DNA from: Bacilli bacterium
GTDB lineage: Bacteria; Bacillota_I; Bacilli_A; RF39; UBA660
Assembly: GCA_017416535.1 (NCBI GenBank)
Contig: JAFQCG010000005.1
Span: 141,708 to 205,707 of the forward strand
Direction: 5' to 3'
DNA length: 64,000 nt
Shown here: positions 2,606-63,982 of the stretch, one piece after another
How the letters are laid out: each line of letters begins with the position of its first letter
Numbering within the stretch: position 1 is the stretch's first letter
Notes under the pieces: model-generated
The model's input: the letters and a program-made list of their open reading frames with translations, nothing else
What the model was told of the DNA's origin: nothing
Databases searched by the model: none
Made by a program: the position numbers and the translations under genes

Positions 2606-4270
2606 TTATTCATCTTTAATAAATTTTTCTATATCTTCAGTGTTTGAATATACTGTTAATCCTGAAATTGAATATGAGTTTATTCCAGCTTCTTGTGTCA
2701 TAAATACTCCTGGAATTATATCCCATGGTTTTGTTGTTGATAACACAAGAGTATTTGTTCTTCCTGTTAAAAGATTTGAGAAAGCAAAGCAACATGCATT
2801 AATATGCATAAAGTTTGCTGGACGAACTGGATTGTTTAGTAATTTTTCAAATATAGTTTTCTTTTCTTCAAATTTCTTATGACATGAACCACAGAATTCA
2901 ATTGTACTTTGATTTAGTGGAACTTTGTTTCCTAAATCAATTCTTTTATGATTTAAGTATGCACCCTTACCTTTTATGGCATAGAACATTTCATCTAATT
3001 TTGGTAAGTACATTATTGAGAATTGAATTTCTCCATTATCTACAAATGCAAGTTGTATTCCCCAGAAAATTGATTTTTTCATATAATGAGCTGTTCCATC
3101 AATTGGGTCAATTATCCAAGTTCTATTTTGAATTGTATTTTCATTATTAAATTCTTCTGTTACAAAGTTATCATCTGGAAAACTATCTCTAATATGATCA
3201 ATTAGTAATTTTTCAACAATTAAGTCTGATTCTGTTACAAATGTTGAATCTTCTTTTTCTCTAAAAGTGATTTTTACTAAATTCTTTTTATTAATTGTTG
3301 ATGTTGCATCTTCAATTGCATTGTAAGCTAAATCAAATTCTCTTGAATAGTCATGATTATCAAGATAGTAATTCATCATATATTTTTCTAGTTCTTCTTC
3401 ATATGGCATTCCATCTTGAGCACCTTTTATTCTGATTTTCATACTAGACGCATATTGAGCTTTTACTACTGACTCATATAATGTAAATCCTTTGATTAAA
3501 GCAGCTGCAAAGTTACCATTAAATGTATCTCCTGCTCCTGTTGTGTCTTCTACCTTATCAACTTCTATTGCTGGTATTTTTACAATTTTTTCTCCATCAT
3601 GATAAGCTACTCCATCTGGTCCTAATGTAACGATTAATTTATTAGGATATTTTTCTAGACATGATTCAATATCTGTTGTTTCAAATATTATTTCACATTC
3701 TTTTTTATTTGCAGTTATATATGTAATTTTATCAATTAATTCTTTGTTTCCTGGTTCTGATATTGCTAACCTTTGTGGTCTACATGGAGTAAGTACTAGT
3801 GGAATGTTATTGTCATAACAGAAGTTAATTAATTCTACACTTACTTCTTTTGGTACTTTTAATTGAGCTATTACCATTTTTGATTGTAAGAAGACTTTTT
3901 TATATCTTTCAATCATTTCTGGTGTAAAACTATCTATTGCTCCAGCAAATCTTTCAATATCATTATCTTTTGTCTTTTCATCAATTACAATTTTTGCATA
4001 GTCATTACTTAGTCCATCAATTACTTCAATATTATTTGTTGTAATGTTATTGTATACTAGGTTTTCTAAAATTCTTTGTCCTATTGAGTCTTTTCCTAAT
4101 CTACTTACCATTGTTACTTTTGCTCCAGCACGTGCTGCAGCAACTGCTTGGTTTGATCCTTTTCCTCCTGGTAAAACTAGTGATGGACATTCTGGTATTT
4201 CACCTTTTTCGTTTTTATAATAGAATTGGTCTAAAGCACATCCTCCAAAGACACAAATGTCATACTTCAT
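2606..4270 (-). CDS. bifunctional fusion: PfkB/ribokinase-family sugar kinase (N-terminus) plus inositol-monophosphatase-family phosphatase (C-terminus)
   Basis: N-terminal GGKGSNQAVAAARAG and DTTGAGDTFNG (PfkB signatures 1 and 2). C-terminal FVTEE...WIIDPIDGT...KPWDIIPG (IMPase metal-binding motifs). Single 554-aa ORF. Confidence 0.75.
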   Translation of the reverse strand: MKYDICVFGGCALDQFYYKNEKGEIPECPSLVLPGGKGSNQAVAAARAGAKVTMVSRLGKDSIGQRILENLVYNNITTNNIEVIDGLSNDYAKIVIDEKTKDNDIERFAGAIDSFTPEMIERYKKVFLQSKMVIAQLKVPKEVSVELINFCYDNNIPLVLTPCRPQRLAISEPGNKELIDKITYITANKKECEIIFETTDIESCLEKYPNKLIVTLGPDGVAYHDGEKIVKIPAIEVDKVEDTTGAGDTFNGNFAAALIKGFTLYESVVKAQYASSMKIRIKGAQDGMPYEEELEKYMMNYYLDNHDYSREFDLAYNAIEDATSTINKKNLVKITFREKEDSTFVTESDLIVEKLLIDHIRDSFPDDNFVTEEFNNENTIQNRTWIIDPIDGTAHYMKKSIFWGIQLAFVDNGEIQFSIMYLPKLDEMFYAIKGKGAYLNHKRIDLGNKVPLNQSTIEFCGSCHKKFEEKKTIFEKLLNNPVRPANFMHINACCFAFSNLLTGRTNTLVLSTTKPWDIIPGVFMTQEAGINSYSISGLTVYSNTEDIEKFIKDE

Positions 4271-4341
4271 TATGTTCGCCTACCTTCTTACATTTTTCAT
4301 AATAATTATAACAGAAAAATTTATAAAACAGAATATACTTT

Positions 4342-5298
4342 TTAATTTAATAAAAAGTTCATTATTAAGTCGATAATAATTTTCTTTTCTTTAGGATTAC
4401 TTTCTGCAATTAGTAGAGTTAATGCTACTAAGGTGTTATTATCTATAACCTGTTTATTATCTATATATAATATATTATAAAATTGTAGAAAATATATAAA
4501 TAGTGTTGCAGCTATTCGTTTATTTCCATCTATAAAAACATGATTTTTTACTATCATATATAGAAAGTTTGCTGCTTTTTCTTCTGTTGAATTATATACT
4601 TCTTTATTATCATAAGTTTGATATATATTATTTATTATTGATTCTAGTCCATTATTTCTTTCCAATGCAAATAATTTGCTTTCTTCATTAAATCGAAGCT
4701 TTTTAATTATATCCATACAATTTCTATATGTTATTTTTTTAGTACTTGATTTTCCTTTTACTTTTGTTAATGTATGATGGTCATAATCGTCTAAAATATC
4801 TAATGCTTTTGAATAGTTACCTATTACTTTTAAAATTTCTTTAGCATCATTATTTTCTAGTCTTTCATCCATTCTATTAGCAATATCAATTAGTTTTACT
4901 GTTTTTTCTAAGTAATCTAATCTTTGCTTATTTACTGCATATCCTTTTAACATATAGTCTTTTAATACTTTTGTTGCCCATTTTCTAAATGCTACTCCTT
5001 GTGTTGAATTTACTCTATATCCAACACTTATAATCATATCTAAGTTATAATATTCAACCATATGCATCTGAGTTTTTCCTTTAATTGCACCGTGGTCAGT
5101 GGTGTTCGCAAATTTTGCGACAACCACTTCATTACTTAATTCCTCTTTAAGTGCATTATTTATATGCTTTCTTATTGTTTTAAAATCTCTATTAAATAAT
5201 TGAGACATTTGTTGTGTATTAAGCCACACAGTTTCATCTTGCATATTTACTTCTAGTTTTACATTTTGATCTTCAAATAATATTATTTCATTTTTCAT
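4342..5298 (-). CDS. RhuM-family protein with C-terminal Fic/Doc domain
   Basis: N-terminal region is RhuM-like (VWLNTQQMSQLF...TIRKHI). C-terminal HVFIDGNKRIAATL fits the Doc/Fic core HxFx(D/E)GNKR. RBS GAAGGAGAT upstream. Confidence 0.7.
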   Translation of the reverse strand: MKNEIILFEDQNVKLEVNMQDETVWLNTQQMSQLFNRDFKTIRKHINNALKEELSNEVVVAKFANTTDHGAIKGKTQMHMVEYYNLDMIISVGYRVNSTQGVAFRKWATKVLKDYMLKGYAVNKQRLDYLEKTVKLIDIANRMDERLENNDAKEILKVIGNYSKALDILDDYDHHTLTKVKGKSSTKKITYRNCMDIIKKLRFNEESKLFALERNNGLESIINNIYQTYDNKEVYNSTEEKAANFLYMIVKNHVFIDGNKRIAATLFIYFLQFYNILYIDNKQVIDNNTLVALTLLIAESNPKEKKIIIDLIMNFLLN

Positions 5299-59537: not shown

Positions 59538-60506
59538 TTATAATAATTTTAAATCTTTTAATTCTTCTAATGTTTTTTCTTCCCAACTAGAAGCTTGTAC
59601 TTCAGCAATATGAGATTTTTCAAGTAAAAGCATTAAGATTCTTGATTGTCCAATTCCTCCACCTATTGTGTATGGAAGATCTTTTTCTGCTATTTTTTTA
59701 TGATATGGTAATTCTAATCTATCTAAAGCATCGGCTTTCTTTAATTGTTCTAATAATGATTTTTCATCTACTCTAATTCCCATTGATGAAAGTTCAATTG
59801 CTTTATCAATGGTTTTATCATAAATAAGTAAATCTCCATCTAATGACCAATCGTCATAGTCTGGACTTCTTAAGTCATGCTCAATACCTGATTTTAATTT
59901 ATCACCAATACCAATAATAAATACTGCTTTCTTTTCTTTTGTAATTAAATCTTCTCTTTCTTTAGGTGTTTTATCTGGATACATATCTTCTAATTCTTGA
60001 GATGTAATAAAGAAGATTGATTTTGGTAAATCTAAAGTTAAGAATCTATATTTAGTTTTTAAATAAACTGATGTTTGTCTAATTGCTTTATATATTGACT
60101 TAACTGTTTCTTTTAAATAATCTATTGTTCTATCTTCTTTAGTAATTACTTTTTCCCAGTCCCATTGTTCTACATATAAAGAGTGAACTGCATCAACTTC
60201 CTCATGTTTTCTAATTGCTTTCATATCAGTATATAATCCTGTATGAACTGGGAAACCATATTTTCCTAATGCTTCTCTTTTCCATTTTGCTAAAGAGTGA
60301 ACAATTTCGAATCTTTCTTTTCCTTTTGTAAATCCTACTGCTTTTTCTACACCAGTTAATCCATCTTGTAATCCTGATGATGTTTTTACAAATAATGGAC
60401 TTGGTACTTTTGTTAAACTTAATCTTGTTTCTAATTGGCTTTCAAAATATTTTTTTGTTTCAGCGATCATTGTGATCGTTTCATAATACGTTAATTCTTT
60501 TTTCAT
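59538..60506 (-). CDS. asnA: aspartate--ammonia ligase (asparagine synthetase A)
   Basis: VHSLAKWKR, HSLYVEQWDWE, PDYDDWS, SSMGIRVD and TIGGGIGQSR align along the full length with E. coli AsnA. Confidence 0.85.
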   Translation of the reverse strand: MKKELTYYETITMIAETKKYFESQLETRLSLTKVPSPLFVKTSSGLQDGLTGVEKAVGFTKGKERFEIVHSLAKWKREALGKYGFPVHTGLYTDMKAIRKHEEVDAVHSLYVEQWDWEKVITKEDRTIDYLKETVKSIYKAIRQTSVYLKTKYRFLTLDLPKSIFFITSQELEDMYPDKTPKEREDLITKEKKAVFIIGIGDKLKSGIEHDLRSPDYDDWSLDGDLLIYDKTIDKAIELSSMGIRVDEKSLLEQLKKADALDRLELPYHKKIAEKDLPYTIGGGIGQSRILMLLLEKSHIAEVQASSWEEKTLEELKDLKLL

Positions 60507-60695: not shown

Positions 60696-61547
60696 TTATT
60701 TTTTTTGTTTTAGTTTTGGTGTATCTTTATCATCTAATCTTTTTTGAATACTACCTAAAAATTCTTGTTTAGTAAATGTTGTTTCAATTGTTCTTGTTCC
60801 ATTGATTAAGTATGCAGGTTGTTCTGGGTAACAATCTAATCCATCACCTACTGCTAAACTTTCAATCATTTGATAACTAATTGGATGACAGCATCCCATA
60901 AAAATTCTTGTTTGTGTAGAGATATCTATTAGTTGTTGTCTATCTTTTTCAATTAGTTCTTTACATGGTAGTGCTTTTTCAATTTCACTTGCAGAGATAT
61001 GCTGACTTTTTATAATGTATTGTAAATGTTTAATTAATTGTTCACCATACTCTCCTTTGTATTTATCTAAACTTTTTGCGTCTTCTTCAAATCTTACACC
61101 GTACTCATCAGCTTTTCTATCAACAAAATCTAGATAAGCTTTTAGTGCATCATCAGTTTGTCCGTGTAGTTCTAAATATTTTCCTAACATTTCGTCCAGA
61201 GCATATTCTTCAAATAAATCTTGAATGTATACGAACCATATTTCTTCTAATGCATCAGGTGCTAAAAATGGATATTTTTCTGAAATATCATATATTCCTT
61301 TAATAGTTTCTTTCTTAGTTCTTACATCGTATCTTCCACCGAAACTTTGAAATTGTCCAATGAATAGTTTATATTTTTCTACATCCATTTCTACATCTCC
61401 AAGAATTTCCATAATATATTTTGTTCTTGGAATTCTTCTACCAGTATCACATAACATATATTTGAAATCACTATCTTGATATTCCAAATATTCACTTAAT
61501 CGATGCTTTGGTAATTCTTCTTTTTTAAAATACTCTGTTTTTCGCAT
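60696..61547 (-). CDS. hypothetical protein (contains FMGCCHP motif) controlled by a T-box leader
   Basis: RBS AAGGAGGTGAAA 8 nt before ATG 61547 (MRKTEYF). The ORF-track GTG start at 61556 would overlap the RBS. Confidence 0.5.
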   Translation of the reverse strand: MRKTEYFKKEELPKHRLSEYLEYQDSDFKYMLCDTGRRIPRTKYIMEILGDVEMDVEKYKLFIGQFQSFGGRYDVRTKKETIKGIYDISEKYPFLAPDALEEIWFVYIQDLFEEYALDEMLGKYLELHGQTDDALKAYLDFVDRKADEYGVRFEEDAKSLDKYKGEYGEQLIKHLQYIIKSQHISASEIEKALPCKELIEKDRQQLIDISTQTRIFMGCCHPISYQMIESLAVGDGLDCYPEQPAYLINGTRTIETTFTKQEFLGSIQKRLDDKDTPKLKQKK

Positions 61548-61556
61548 TGGTTTCAC

Positions 61557-61860
61557 CTCCTTATTACTAAAATAAAAATACCCGTATCATCCTACAAATA
61601 AGGACGAATACGGGTATCCGCGGTGCCACCTTAATTTATTACTAAAAGTTATTTTAACTTTTTAAATCAGTAATCTCTTTTTCTGCTCTAACAAGCATAG
61701 CAATCTGATAACGGTTTGCTTTCCGAACTAGTCTACTAAGATTTCTCTTTTCGGTAGTTTGCTCCGAGGTGTTCTTTCTCAATAATCTTATAATCGGTTC
61801 ACACTATACCCGACTCACTGTTATAAGCATTAAAGGTACTTTTCCTCATCAATGCAAGCT
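61557..61860 (-). ncRNA. T-box riboswitch leader (probable Asn specifier AAC) with terminator/antiterminator
   Basis: T-box sequence AAGGTGGCACCGCGG (61618-61632 on minus). Terminator ATACCCGTAT..ATACGGGTAT plus U-run (61578-61616). Candidate specifier GAAAG-AAC-A (AAC is rc of 61771-61773). Confidence 0.7.
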
Positions 61861-61861
61861 A

Positions 61862-61890
61862 ATTATAGCATATTTGAGATAATTTGTCAA
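61862..61890 (-). promoter_or_regulatory. consensus sigma-A promoter TTGACA, 17 nt, TATAAT driving the T-box leader
   Basis: Minus-strand reading TTGACAaattatctcaaatatgcTATAAT. Confidence 0.65.
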
Positions 61891-61942
61891 ATATTTGTTT
61901 GACTATTACTTTATAACATAGAAAAAAGATGTATAAAACATC

Positions 61943-62767
61943 TTAATATCCTTCTTTTAATCCAGCACTATCATAGAATAAACTTCTTCCACCTTCTTGA
62001 TATTTTTTAGTATATCTAAAGTAGACAAAAATAGGTTTTCCGGTAGAAGTTATATACACGTAATTATCACATGTACAACGATCTTGATCAGCCATCTTTT
62101 TTGTTAACATAAATTCATCATCAAATTCATTAACAATATCTTTGTAGTTTATAAAGTTATCTTTTGTATACTCATTTACTTGCATCATTGATATAAATCC
62201 AACCTGATTTATTTGAGTATCATTTAAACTTTCTAAGAAATTAATTACTTCTTTTTTACTATCAATATAATCTTTTATTAGTAAACAATTTATTCGTAAG
62301 TCCGCTTTGCTCTTTAGTTGTTTTATTTTATCAAGTGTGATTGTTTTAGTTTGAAATACTTCATTATTTTTTTCATCTAAATAATGATGTCTACTTAATT
62401 GAATTGATTCAATTGGATACTTATTTAACATTGGAAGTGTTTTTTCTAATAATATACCATTGGTATTAAGTGTAATTCTGGGATCGTATTTTTTTAGTAG
62501 TTTTAATAAATCTTCCAAGTTTTCACAGTTTAGTAGAGTTTCTCCTCCGCTAATTGAAAATCTGCTTATTTTTTTATGTACTATGTCTATTATACTTTCC
62601 AACTCATTTAGATCTAATTTTCCAAAGTTCTTATTACATTCATTTGAACAAAATTTACATTTGGCATTACAAATATTTGTTACATTAATATAAAATGGAA
62701 ATTCATTACATGGTGAACATGCATATTCTTTTATATTATATTTTTTACCATTAACATCTAATTCCAC
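61943..62767 (-). CDS. radical SAM enzyme (small, 274 aa, no SPASM domain)
   Basis: CX3CX2C NICNAKCKFC, SISGGETLL (GGE motif). GTG start preceded by TAGGAAAT. Overlaps the 3' end of the repeat-peptide gene by 17 nt. Confidence 0.75.
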   Translation of the reverse strand: MELDVNGKKYNIKEYACSPCNEFPFYINVTNICNAKCKFCSNECNKNFGKLDLNELESIIDIVHKKISRFSISGGETLLNCENLEDLLKLLKKYDPRITLNTNGILLEKTLPMLNKYPIESIQLSRHHYLDEKNNEVFQTKTITLDKIKQLKSKADLRINCLLIKDYIDSKKEVINFLESLNDTQINQVGFISMMQVNEYTKDNFINYKDIVNEFDDEFMLTKKMADQDRCTCDNYVYITSTGKPIFVYFRYTKKYQEGGRSLFYDSAGLKEGY

Positions 62768-63188
62768 TTTGATTTCCTACTTCTTTATTTATTGGTAAAA
62801 TCATTTTTGAATAAGGTTTCTTACTTGAGAATGAGCTTCCACATGACGGATGTCCTCCAATGTTTCTATTATTTGAACTTCCACATGAAGGATGTCCTCC
62901 TCCATATCCCCAACCGCGACTCGAACCACAAGATGGGTGTCCTCCTCCATATCCATAATCATCATTTGATGTTCCACATGATGGATGTGCCATCATTGTA
63001 ATTTGATCACTTTCTTGAAAATAATTTTCATTAATTTCATATCCATGTTTTCTTAATGCTTTATTAAACACCTCTCTTGATTGTGGTGTTGCGAATAGGA
63101 ACGGACATAAATTTCCTAAATCTTCAACCGATTGAACTGGATTTTCTGAACGTCTAAATATTTTTTCAATTAATTGTTCTTGTTTCAT
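62751..63188 (-). CDS. 145-aa peptide with four tandem G-G-H-P-S-C-G-[ST]-S repeats; candidate radical-SAM-modified precursor or metal-binding repeat protein
   Basis: RBS GGAGGGAAAC before ATG 63188. About 67-aa N-terminal region, then AHPSCGTS...GGGHPSCGSS...GGGHPSCGSS...GGHPSCGSS, and a C-terminal Cys. DNA shows 4 copies of CCACATGA(A/T)GGATGTCC on plus. Confidence 0.6.
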   Translation of the reverse strand: MKQEQLIEKIFRRSENPVQSVEDLGNLCPFLFATPQSREVFNKALRKHGYEINENYFQESDQITMMAHPSCGTSNDDYGYGGGHPSCGSSRGWGYGGGHPSCGSSNNRNIGGHPSCGSSFSSKKPYSKMILPINKEVGNQSGIRC

Positions 63189-63212
63189 AAGTTTCCCTCC
63201 TGCTTTTATAAT

Positions 63213-63249
63213 AACACAAAAACTGATAAAAACAAAATGTTTTTATCAG
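63213..63249 (-). terminator. terminator (CTGATAAAAAC..GTTTTTATCAG plus U-run) separating the upstream membrane-protein gene from the repeat-peptide/rSAM unit
   Basis: 11-bp perfect stem with 4-nt loop, followed on minus by TTTTTGTGTT. Confidence 0.6.
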
Positions 63250-63265
63250 TTTGTTATAATTTTAT

Positions 63266-63982
63266 TTATTCGACTGTTTTATCTTCAATTATTGTATCGC
63301 AATATTCACATCTTACCTTGCTTCCTCTGTTAACATCATTGATTGCTCCACAATTTTCACATCTAATTGATATAAAGTCTTTTTCTTTTTTTGTCTTTTC
63401 TACTGTATAATATAAAATTTCTTTATCAACCTCATTAAGCTTGATACCATTAATTAAATCTTTATCATATAAATTTTTTAAGTCGTTAAACACTTTTTCT
63501 TTATATTTATCTAAATTTTTAATAGATGCACCTGGCATTCTAGCTGCCATTTCTTTTATAGTTAGGTGATTTTGATAGATAAATGGTTTGTATTTAATTA
63601 ATAATTCATTATCTTCTGGGCTACATGGTAGTAACATTCCATTAATGTGATCTATATGCAAATCACCAATTTGTCTTTTATTTTTTAAATATCTTATTTT
63701 TAAAATACATTCATCGTATGAACATCCTGCTTTTGCGGCAATCTTTTTAATATCTTTTTTCTTTTCAACTACGATTGCTTGATAAATTATGTTCATTTTC
63801 TTTTCAAATAATATATCTGCAGGAATAGAATGTTCATAAAACTTGGCATATCTTTGATATGACTCTTCATTTATGTTTTCACTATTTTTCAGATTGTTAT
63901 ATTTCTTTTTTACTTTGATTCTATTATCTATTGAAATTATTACTATTATTAAAATTAAAGCAATTATAAATACATTTTCCAT
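63266..63982 (-). CDS. membrane-anchored protein with C-terminal zinc-ribbon (CxxC...CxxC)
   Basis: N-terminal TM FIIALILIIVIISI; C-terminal CENCGAINDVNRGSKVRCEYCDT. Confidence 0.45.
   Translation of the reverse strand: MENVFIIALILIIVIISIDNRIKVKKKYNNLKNSENINEESYQRYAKFYEHSIPADILFEKKMNIIYQAIVVEKKKDIKKIAAKAGCSYDECILKIRYLKNKRQIGDLHIDHINGMLLPCSPEDNELLIKYKPFIYQNHLTIKEMAARMPGASIKNLDKYKEKVFNDLKNLYDKDLINGIKLNEVDKEILYYTVEKTKKEKDFISIRCENCGAINDVNRGSKVRCEYCDTIIEDKTVE

Follow-up and report, generated by a model that had tools for sequence, protein, structure and literature searches.

The present analysis concerns a two-gene cassette found in the window, i.e. the whole 64,000-nucleotide stretch of a Bacilli bacterium metagenome-assembled genome (MAG) that was analyzed, in which the gene of a 145-aa protein with four cysteine repeats directly precedes that of a 274-aa radical S-adenosylmethionine (SAM) enzyme. 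Both genes are encoded on the minus strand. The first (62751..63188, ATG start) is deposited at NCBI as MBQ3512024.1 and annotated as a "hypothetical protein", and the second (61943..62767, GTG start) is MBQ3512023.1, annotated as a "radical SAM protein"; the pair is present under consecutive accession numbers in three NCBI MAGs, including the source MAG. The reading we favor, and consider reasonably probable, is that of a dedicated two-gene cassette for maturation, in which the radical SAM enzyme performs a radical reaction at or beside each loop cysteine of the adjacent protein. A radical SAM enzyme together with a substrate protein is a known kind of system, but the families of the enzyme and of the peptide, and likewise the rule that pairs the enzyme with cysteine-tailed partners, appear to be new; all three are absent from Pfam 2025, NCBIfam June 2026, PADLOC, and PHROGs, and no description of them was found in the full-text literature searched by motif and keyword. 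Radical SAM peptide maturases rank among the main sources from which novel enzyme chemistry and bioactive gut-microbiome peptides are obtained, and to our knowledge nearly all of those characterized have SPASM/twitch domains as well as a recognition element (RRE) typical of peptides that are made by ribosomes and then modified post-translationally (RiPPs). The cassette pairs an enzyme without SPASM, twitch, or RRE domains with a cysteine-repeat protein, and thereby gives a view on a far larger family.

The key features of the 145-aa protein are its repeats and the arrangement of the segments around them. The motif HPSCG[TS]S begins at residues 68, 84, 99, and 113, at a spacing of 16, 15, and 14 residues, so that one identical 5-mer occurs four times, and any 5-mer was found even twice in just 183 of 20,000 shuffles of the protein. 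The codons of the repeats differ synonymously (Pro is encoded by CCA, CCA, CCT, and CCG, with further exchanges between TCA and TCT, GGA and GGT, and TCG, AGT, and AGC), and Tandem Repeats Finder detected no DNA-level tandem repeat in the core. A recent DNA duplication is therefore ruled out as the origin of the repeats, which must have been kept by selection at the protein level. An earlier note on this DNA, made from the sequence alone, had described the four near-identical repeats and a strong ribosome-binding site (RBS), and both descriptions hold, the latter being an AGGAGG located 7 nt 5' of the ATG (63196..63201, minus strand). Its further observation that Gly-Gly precedes each repeat is incorrect for the first, where Met-Met-Ala is found instead.

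Within the protein, the repeats make up a core (residues 68-119; 62832..62987, minus strand) with individual copies at nt 62987-62967, 62939-62919, 62894-62874, and 62852-62832 of the minus strand. They are separated by Gly/Tyr/Asn-rich spacers, and the core is predicted to be disordered, with a predicted local distance difference test score (pLDDT) of about 30 in an AlphaFold2 (AF2) model. The preceding leader (residues 1-66; 62991..63188, minus strand) is a conserved small helical domain of the pattern IFxRSxNP...P.FF...N..L..GY.IN, modeled as helices 3-13, 17-27, and 35-46 and a strand 50-52 (pLDDT about 80), and the follower (residues 120-145, ..KKPYSKMILPINKEVGNQSGIRC; 62754..62831, minus strand) carries the family-conserved motif K.LLP[IL]...NGIRN. 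In the model, the follower strand 132-134 ("LPI") pairs with the leader strand 50-52 ("YEI") at a pLDDT of about 68-80. This predicted clamp between leader and follower would loop out the whole repeat region, an arrangement that is unusual for a RiPP-like precursor and in which we place moderate confidence, and the model suggests that the protein is small and folded and displays a flexible cysteine loop. A fold search of the PDB with this model, which is confident for residues 1-60 only, yielded nothing at E<=0.001, and the 145-aa protein has no match in Pfam, NCBIfam, PADLOC, or PHROGs.

Relatives of the 145-aa protein are few. A word-indexed search returned nine close homologues, and when 1.84 billion representatives were searched exhaustively with an HMMER profile, 18 clusters were obtained at E<=0.001, 17 of which are real. 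The other, P0085, is a 1428-aa eukaryotic TPR protein whose GENHPSVGS repeats gave a low-complexity false match. Besides one 37-aa fragment, the real members are 70-150 aa in length and consist of a leader of about 65 aa, a core, and a follower. The number of core repeats varies from one to five, as does their sequence (HPSCG, HSSCG, HPACG, HPGCG, HSACG, HPCGQ, SRGCSGG, and CTPCG/GSCG/LSCGG), and the sole invariant core residue across the family is the Cys (Cys71). The Ser is replaced by Ala (HPACG) at locus L251, whose radical SAM enzyme is 91% identical to that of the window, and likewise in L002 and in cluster P0081. The His is missing from P0090 (SRGCSGG), from L252 (CTPCG/GSCG/LSCGG), and from the partner protein of L083 (TTCSGS), all of which accompany radical SAM enzymes of 53-66% identity. 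Most repeats of the window clade do have a His at position -3 (or -2) relative to the Cys (HPSC, HSSC, HPAC, HPGC, HSAC, HPC). The C-terminal Cys pointed out in the earlier note is indeed present in the window protein, and in P0001 and P0003 as well, but it is not a family feature, as most relatives end in ...GIRN.

The pairing of the two genes is strict. The radical SAM gene lies directly downstream in 7/7 peptide-family genes with a readable context, namely those of the window, L251, L001, L002, L252, L253 (which encodes P0090), and L254 (which encodes P0089), and the peptide family has never been seen without the enzyme. The enzyme of the syntenic locus L251 is 91% identical to that of the window, those of L001 and L002 are 67% identical, and that of L252 is 66% identical, and the other neighbors vary by locus, some encoding acetyltransferases, others a GH94 enzyme, a subunit of a topoisomerase, or a T-box/asnA operon. 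In the window, the GTG start of the radical SAM gene falls inside the final 17 nt of the 145-aa open reading frame (ORF), resulting in a 17-nt gene overlap. The radical SAM homologues begin at the same "ME..L" position, and a 17-nt overlap or a 4-12 nt gap is also found in L251, L002, L254, L252, and L253. The overlapping start and the self-contained two-gene unit had both been anticipated in the earlier note and are borne out here, the latter by flanking genes that differ from locus to locus. A wide occurrence of the 145-aa protein apart from the enzyme, which the note had asked to be checked, is contradicted by the 17 real clusters and the uniform adjacency. The gene layout is that of RiPPs in general, with a leader-core-follower precursor strictly adjacent to its modifying enzyme, and from this sequence evidence we infer that the 145-aa protein would be the substrate of the radical SAM enzyme.

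When the comparison is extended to more distant enzymes, the type of partner changes and the Cys motif persists. A Cys-Gly-bearing partner is encoded directly upstream of 8/11 radical SAM genes of >=48% identity. At L081 it is a 65-aa peptide (...HNCGGSSSSGGGHPCGRGGSSSSHKSC) of the pattern ...NCGG..HPCGR..KSC. At L083 (3833-4942; enzyme 53% identical) it is a protein of 369 aa in which a WXG/LXG-like N-terminus is combined with 11 tandem ITTCSGS repeats, encoded within a WXG100 (type VII secretion) cluster in which its paralogues are without Cys repeats; proteins of this kind may be radical-SAM-modified substrates of the type VII secretion system (T7SS). The radical SAM gene of L087 (59% identity) also adjoins WXG100 genes. 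At L085 and L086 the partner (3694/3769-4998) is a DUF6273 protein that is anchored to the membrane at its N-terminus and has a single "ACYGCGGCS" patch, and the gene of the 48%-identical enzyme starts directly after its stop codon.

The enzyme is a clear member of the radical SAM superfamily (PF04055 Radical_SAM, 60.1 bits versus a cut-off of 29.5), containing C33-x3-C37-x2-C40 (nt 62671-62648), G74-G75-E76, NTNG at 101-104, and SRHHY at 125-129. Among 94 non-identical sequences of the family, C33/C37/C40 and G74-G75-E76 are invariant and S125, H127, H128, and Y129 are conserved at 97-100%. Four additional cysteines are also conserved (C17 97%, C231 98%, C233 99%, and C161 90%). Since C17, C231, and C233, which are located in an N-terminal hairpin and the C-terminal sheet, are near-invariant, they likely hold an auxiliary cluster, which may be MoaA-like with one open iron. 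No SPASM domain (PF13186) was matched even at E<=1, and the protein ends 34 residues past the CxC pair. Thus the earlier description of a 274-aa radical SAM enzyme with CX3CX2C and GGE motifs and without SPASM is accurate, but "minimal" was misleading in view of the conserved extra cysteines. The AF2 model (pLDDT 93.5) is a partial TIM-barrel fold to which Foldseek assigns a probability of 1.00 for MoaA, SuiB, viperin, and PFL-AE, and the closest solved structures, at about 18% identity, are the cores of MoaA, SuiB, BlsE, viperin, PFL-AE, and EpeE/YydG.

In Pfam, NCBIfam, PADLOC, and PHROGs, the enzyme gave just generic radical SAM matches, and apart from that of Pfam Radical_SAM it reaches no curated cut-off. 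It falls far short of the MoaA models (TIGR02666/TIGR02668, 72 bits versus 284 and 60 versus 325), of HxsC (TIGR03977, 40.8 versus 267.9), of YydG/EpeE (TIGR04078, 39.3 versus 300), of the glycyl-radical activases NrdG2 (48.3 versus 131) and PFLA (33.3 versus 232), and of viperin (NF038283, 37.5 versus 180; the PADLOC pVip model scores 48.9 bits). HxsB (TIGR03978) is outside the best 25 of 55 families at E<=1. The PapB, CcpM, SkfB, and StsB models score <=31 bits and no SPASM/twitch domain is above threshold, so the domain hallmark of sacti- and ranthipeptide maturases is lacking. The hidden Markov model (HMM) comparison with peptide-modifying and housekeeping radical SAM families that the earlier note had proposed therefore places the enzyme in none of them, and its distant family members likewise reach no curated family. 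The C/S-x-P-x-R motif recognized in the substrates of anaerobic sulfatase-maturating enzymes does not occur in the 145-aa protein.

Based upon these features, a reaction scheme can be proposed. The CX3CX2C cluster would cleave SAM to yield a 5'-deoxyadenosyl radical, and a second cluster would be held by C17, C231, and C233, with C161 serving as either a fourth ligand or a hydrogen-atom donor. The open iron of the second cluster, as in MoaA, could bind the thiolate of a substrate Cys, whereupon a hydrogen atom would be taken from that Cys (at C-alpha or C-beta) or from its neighbor. The outcome, once per repeat, would be a thioether or else another Cys-derived structure, for which formylglycine, D-Cys, heterocycles, and adducts are candidates. 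Because the leader is folded, the follower contributes a strand, and neither a protease nor an exporter accompanies the pair, a modified small protein fits better than a cleaved and exported RiPP, and the final product is probably still a small protein, which might bind metal. Metal binding is plausible due to the recurrence of His, Cys, Gly, and Tyr at intervals of 14-16 residues and to an architectural parallel with the HvfA protein of Haemophilus influenzae.

HvfA contains tandem AEGKCGEGKCG repeats, in which each repeat Cys is modified by the multinuclear iron oxidase (MNIO) HvfB to give a copper-binding product (PMC11252979). HvfA and the bufferins share with the cassette the tandem Cys-Gly repeats in a Gly-rich tail and the single dedicated metalloenzyme. 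However, their enzyme is an O2-dependent MNIO/DUF692 protein rather than a radical SAM enzyme, and the cassette has no counterpart to the signal peptide of HvfA or to its DUF2063 partner protein. No homology between the two systems was found, and the resemblance is one of logic only.

Among radical SAM systems, the sacti-/ranthipeptides and repeat RiPPs resemble the cassette in having a leader and short Cys repeats encoded upstream of one radical SAM enzyme, a variable copy number, and anaerobic hosts; the streptococcal NxxC beta-thioether system is a radical-SAM-modified Cys-repeat RiPP of this type. Unlike the enzymes of the repeat RiPPs, the present one lacks SPASM/twitch and RRE domains and reaches no curated maturase model, and the cassette further differs in having no protease or exporter, a folded 65-aa leader, a conserved follower, and no conserved acceptor residue. 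EpeE/YydG (PDB 8ai1-8ai6) is likewise a compact peptide-modifying radical SAM enzyme of about 320 aa that lacks a full SPASM domain and has an auxiliary cluster and a catalytic Cys, and by sequence it ranks second among the PDB matches (56 bits) at an identity of about 20% and a Foldseek template modeling (TM) score of about 0.5, but its substrate YydF is without Cys repeats and unrelated to the 145-aa protein. In MoaA, the second cluster is held by three Cys and its open iron binds the substrate, which fits C17, C231, and C233, whereas in the present enzyme the Cys are placed differently (one N-terminal plus a CxC pair), the partner is a protein, and there are no molybdopterin genes nearby. 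Lastly, the HxsABCD system includes a non-SPASM radical SAM enzyme of similar size, HxsC, and HPS formally fits H-x-S, but the cassette is without a second radical SAM enzyme or HxsD, and H-x-S is not conserved in the homologues.

Several points weigh against a cysteine-modifying cassette. The evidence for that reading comes from sequences and models, and the auxiliary cluster is predicted from residue conservation. Pfam identified no RRE/PqqD-like peptide-recognition domain in the enzyme, and no protease, transporter, or immunity gene recurs beside the pair among the loci read, in agreement with the earlier note, which had seen none adjacent. The top sequence and fold matches include the nucleotide-acting MoaA and viperin; the enzymes of L087 (59% identity), L088 (51%), and L089 (49%) have no partner upstream; and a distant clade of the enzyme family is found in a nicotinamide adenine dinucleotide (NAD) salvage setting, which hints at the involvement of a small molecule. 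Each of these latter observations could be accounted for if the enzyme acted on a small molecule, either nucleotide or NAD-related, with the Cys protein as an accessory rather than the substrate; it might donate sulfur or electrons, act as a chaperone for a cluster or a metal, or carry the small molecule attached via its Cys. By HMM and by fold, MoaA (72 bits; Foldseek E = 8e-11, TM 0.66) and the viperins match best, a clade of about 35% identity is embedded in an NAD operon near NrtR and ADP-ribosylglycohydrolase, the orphan enzymes L087-L089 manage without a partner, and RRE, protease, and exporter are all lacking. Even so, we consider this explanation unlikely. The MoaA and viperin matches are far under their cut-offs (72 versus 284 and 37.5 versus 180) at about 18% identity, and the enzyme is equally close to the peptide-modifying EpeE/YydG (56 bits) and SuiB. 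Furthermore, no genes of NAD or nucleotide metabolism adjoin the pair in the window clade, a generic accessory role is hard to reconcile with the T7SS-type partner and its 11 TTCSGS repeats or with the DUF6273 surface partners, and a variable number of repeats is typical of substrates.

The chemistry envisaged in the earlier note, a His-Xaa-Ser or three-residue cyclophane linkage, now appears improbable. It would join the His of H-P-S to residue i+2, or alternatively to the Cys at i+3 as in the NxxC beta-thioethers, and is consistent with the His at -3 (or -2) in most window-clade repeats and with HxsC being among the better of the weak matches, including the top one for a phage clade of the enzyme (53.8 bits). 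This reading fails because neither His nor Ser is conserved and the Cys alone is invariant: the Ser is an Ala in L251, L002, and P0081, and the His is absent in P0090, L252, and L083. In addition, HxsC scores 40.8 bits versus 267.9, there is no equivalent of HxsA, HxsB, or HxsD, and the features of the Xye/Grr/Fxs triceptides, i.e. a C-terminal SPASM domain and a conserved aromatic or His-X-X crosslink motif, are lacking. We give the least credence to the notion of an unmodified Gly/Tyr/His/Cys-rich metal-binding or structural protein that is merely co-operonic with an unrelated radical SAM enzyme. A His and a Cys every 14-16 residues would suit metal binding, the modeled fold of leader and follower would be expected of a small protein that is stable, and processing genes are absent, but the strict coupling makes such a coincidence very unlikely: adjacency in 7/7 contexts and translational coupling are kept across differing surroundings, the peptide family is always accompanied by the enzyme, and partners with Cys tails are enriched across the whole enzyme family.

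This enrichment becomes evident when examining the many relatives of the enzyme at 24-40% identity in genome, metagenome, and viral collections. At 31/71 non-identical assessable loci the directly upstream ORF ends in Cys, compared to 12/438 of the other ORFs of >=80 aa at the same 71 loci. A typical Cys-tail partner is small (85-185 aa) and helical, with CG motifs in the tail, which may read ...GCGSDQSVGCGS...GCGSSKSGC, ...HYGHYHEVSSSSCGSS...NRC, or ...DDGCGRGGYPRSSC. A shared origin of the partner leaders was rejected, as hhalign gave probabilities of 5.6% and 27% for the window-clade leader against the partners of the NAD clade and of the phage clade. Judging from these sequences, the Cys tail, not the leader, is what co-varies with the enzyme. 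The family comprises hundreds of clusters in MAGs of Bacilli and Clostridia and extends to Bacteroidales, Akkermansia, and Treponemataceae and to phages of 600-735 kb; all of these enzymes are annotated as just "radical SAM protein" or "MoaA", and tail cysteines are all that their partners have in common. The same arrangement is present in IMG/VR contigs of 42-483 kb (L171-L190) and in huge-phage records of 630-735 kb (LR745206.1, LR756501-3), where the radical SAM enzymes are preceded by proteins of 86-185 aa ending in Cys (...SYSRSSC, ...GFHRGC, ...SSNTGC); among curated GenBank phage records, matches came from uncultured megaphages only. The best match of the phage-clade enzymes is HxsC, at the score given above.

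A sister clade of about 35% identity is encoded within NAD operons of the order phosphoribosyl pyrophosphate (PRPP) synthetase, NadD-like protein, PnuC, NadR, partner, radical SAM enzyme, CinA/PncC, and NAD kinase. Its loci include L255-L257 (radical SAM gene at 4001-4915) as well as L004, L006, L010, L016, L096, and L101, with NrtR-type Nudix regulators and an ADP-ribosylglycohydrolase among the neighbors, and here too the partner ends in Cys (...HYSHYSSSGSSSCGGGGISSYRSC). The clade has at least 290 clusters, one of its proteins occurs in 184 collection blocks, and its members are named just "radical SAM protein". The pair looks like an unrecognized component of NAD salvage, and would add a component to that pathway in reduced-genome gut bacteria. 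Another variety is found in Bacteroidales, Akkermansia, and Treponemataceae (L008-L015, L117-L125), where the upstream gene encodes a large A1S_2505-domain protein and a HemN/HemW-like radical SAM enzyme is encoded downstream. At most of these loci the A1S_2505-domain protein carries a conserved "SCGEG[KA]GPN" motif, and in L011 it is fused to an FtsZ-like domain, a fusion that the closely similar protein of L015 probably shares. As separate observations, a second radical SAM gene of about 262-270 aa adjoins the first in L090 (3899-4687), L115, L127, and L204, the one in L090 being RlmN/Cfr-like, and L090 and L188 contain a 41-60-aa ORF ending in ...AEIEAGAACGQLS[IV]I.ENE, which may represent a different peptide system.

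It is tempting to extend the preferred reading of the cassette to all of these enzymes, although as a single proposal we regard this as speculative and quite unlikely to hold in full. The compact radical SAM enzymes with SxHHY, three invariant extra Cys, and no SPASM/RRE would then represent an undescribed superfamily performing new chemistry on the tail Cys of unrelated small proteins in anaerobes and huge phages. Within it, the window clade would be the anaerobic counterpart of the MNIO systems, converting HPxCG repeats into metal-binding groups, and the sister clade would link the same chemistry to NAD metabolism, for instance by building on a carrier protein a product that is attached via Cys and derives from a nucleotide or a pyridine. 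If the chemistry is new, the cassette would define a new class of protein modification, and if a metal-binding group is made, it would be an anaerobic analogue of the MNIO/bufferin systems. With only two genes, the system is directly testable.

The cassette has the boundaries that the earlier note had stated, a terminator upstream and a T-box promoter downstream. On the 5' side, a terminator-like hairpin with a 15-bp AT-rich stem and a T-tract (63220..63252, minus strand; -16.1 kcal/mol, z = -6.1, with 0/200 shuffles equally stable in RNA folding) ends the upstream 238-aa gene and insulates the cassette. A candidate extended -10 element (TGtTATTAT / TATAAA; 63205..63216, minus strand), read by eye, overlaps the T-tract of this terminator; it has no -35 element and was unlisted by a consensus promoter scan, so its assignment is weak. 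Directly 3' of the radical SAM stop codon, a weak 7-bp hairpin with T6 (61922..61942, minus strand; -6 kcal/mol, z = -4.7) may mark the 3' end of a transcript of both genes. The downstream boundary, outside the module, is a sigma-70 promoter and T-box leader serving a 286-aa gene and asnA (61597..61890, minus strand). The promoter, TTGACA-17-TATAAT at 61890-61862, has 12/12 consensus matches and a TG, and the T-box leader at 61597-61861 matches Rfam RF00230 with 106 bits.

The genes directly flanking the pair (238 aa upstream and 286 aa downstream) reach no Pfam cut-off. The upstream gene (63266-63982, minus strand) encodes a protein that begins with a membrane helix and has a CxxC...CxxC zinc ribbon at its C-terminus, for which only weak Pfam zinc-ribbon matches were obtained. 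It was considered as a third cassette member and rejected; in L251 an additional gene of 244 aa lies between it and the pair, and it is absent from L001, L002, L252, and L253, and is therefore outside the module. A link to sulfatases was similarly discarded, as the PF00884 gene three genes upstream in the syntenic L251 is LtaS-like and absent at other loci; this "Sulfatase" has N-terminal transmembrane helices and no CxPxR. On the downstream side, inspection of the T-box leader by eye points to AAC at 61773-61771 as its apparent Asn specifier, and its operon, at 60696-61861 of the minus strand, encodes the 286-aa protein, which has no Pfam/NCBIfam match, followed by asnA at 59538-60506. The 286-aa protein is an uncharacterized member of an Asn-responsive regulon, and the trio of T-box, 286-aa gene, and asnA is also found in L251 and L087, where it is followed by an asparaginyl-tRNA synthetase gene.

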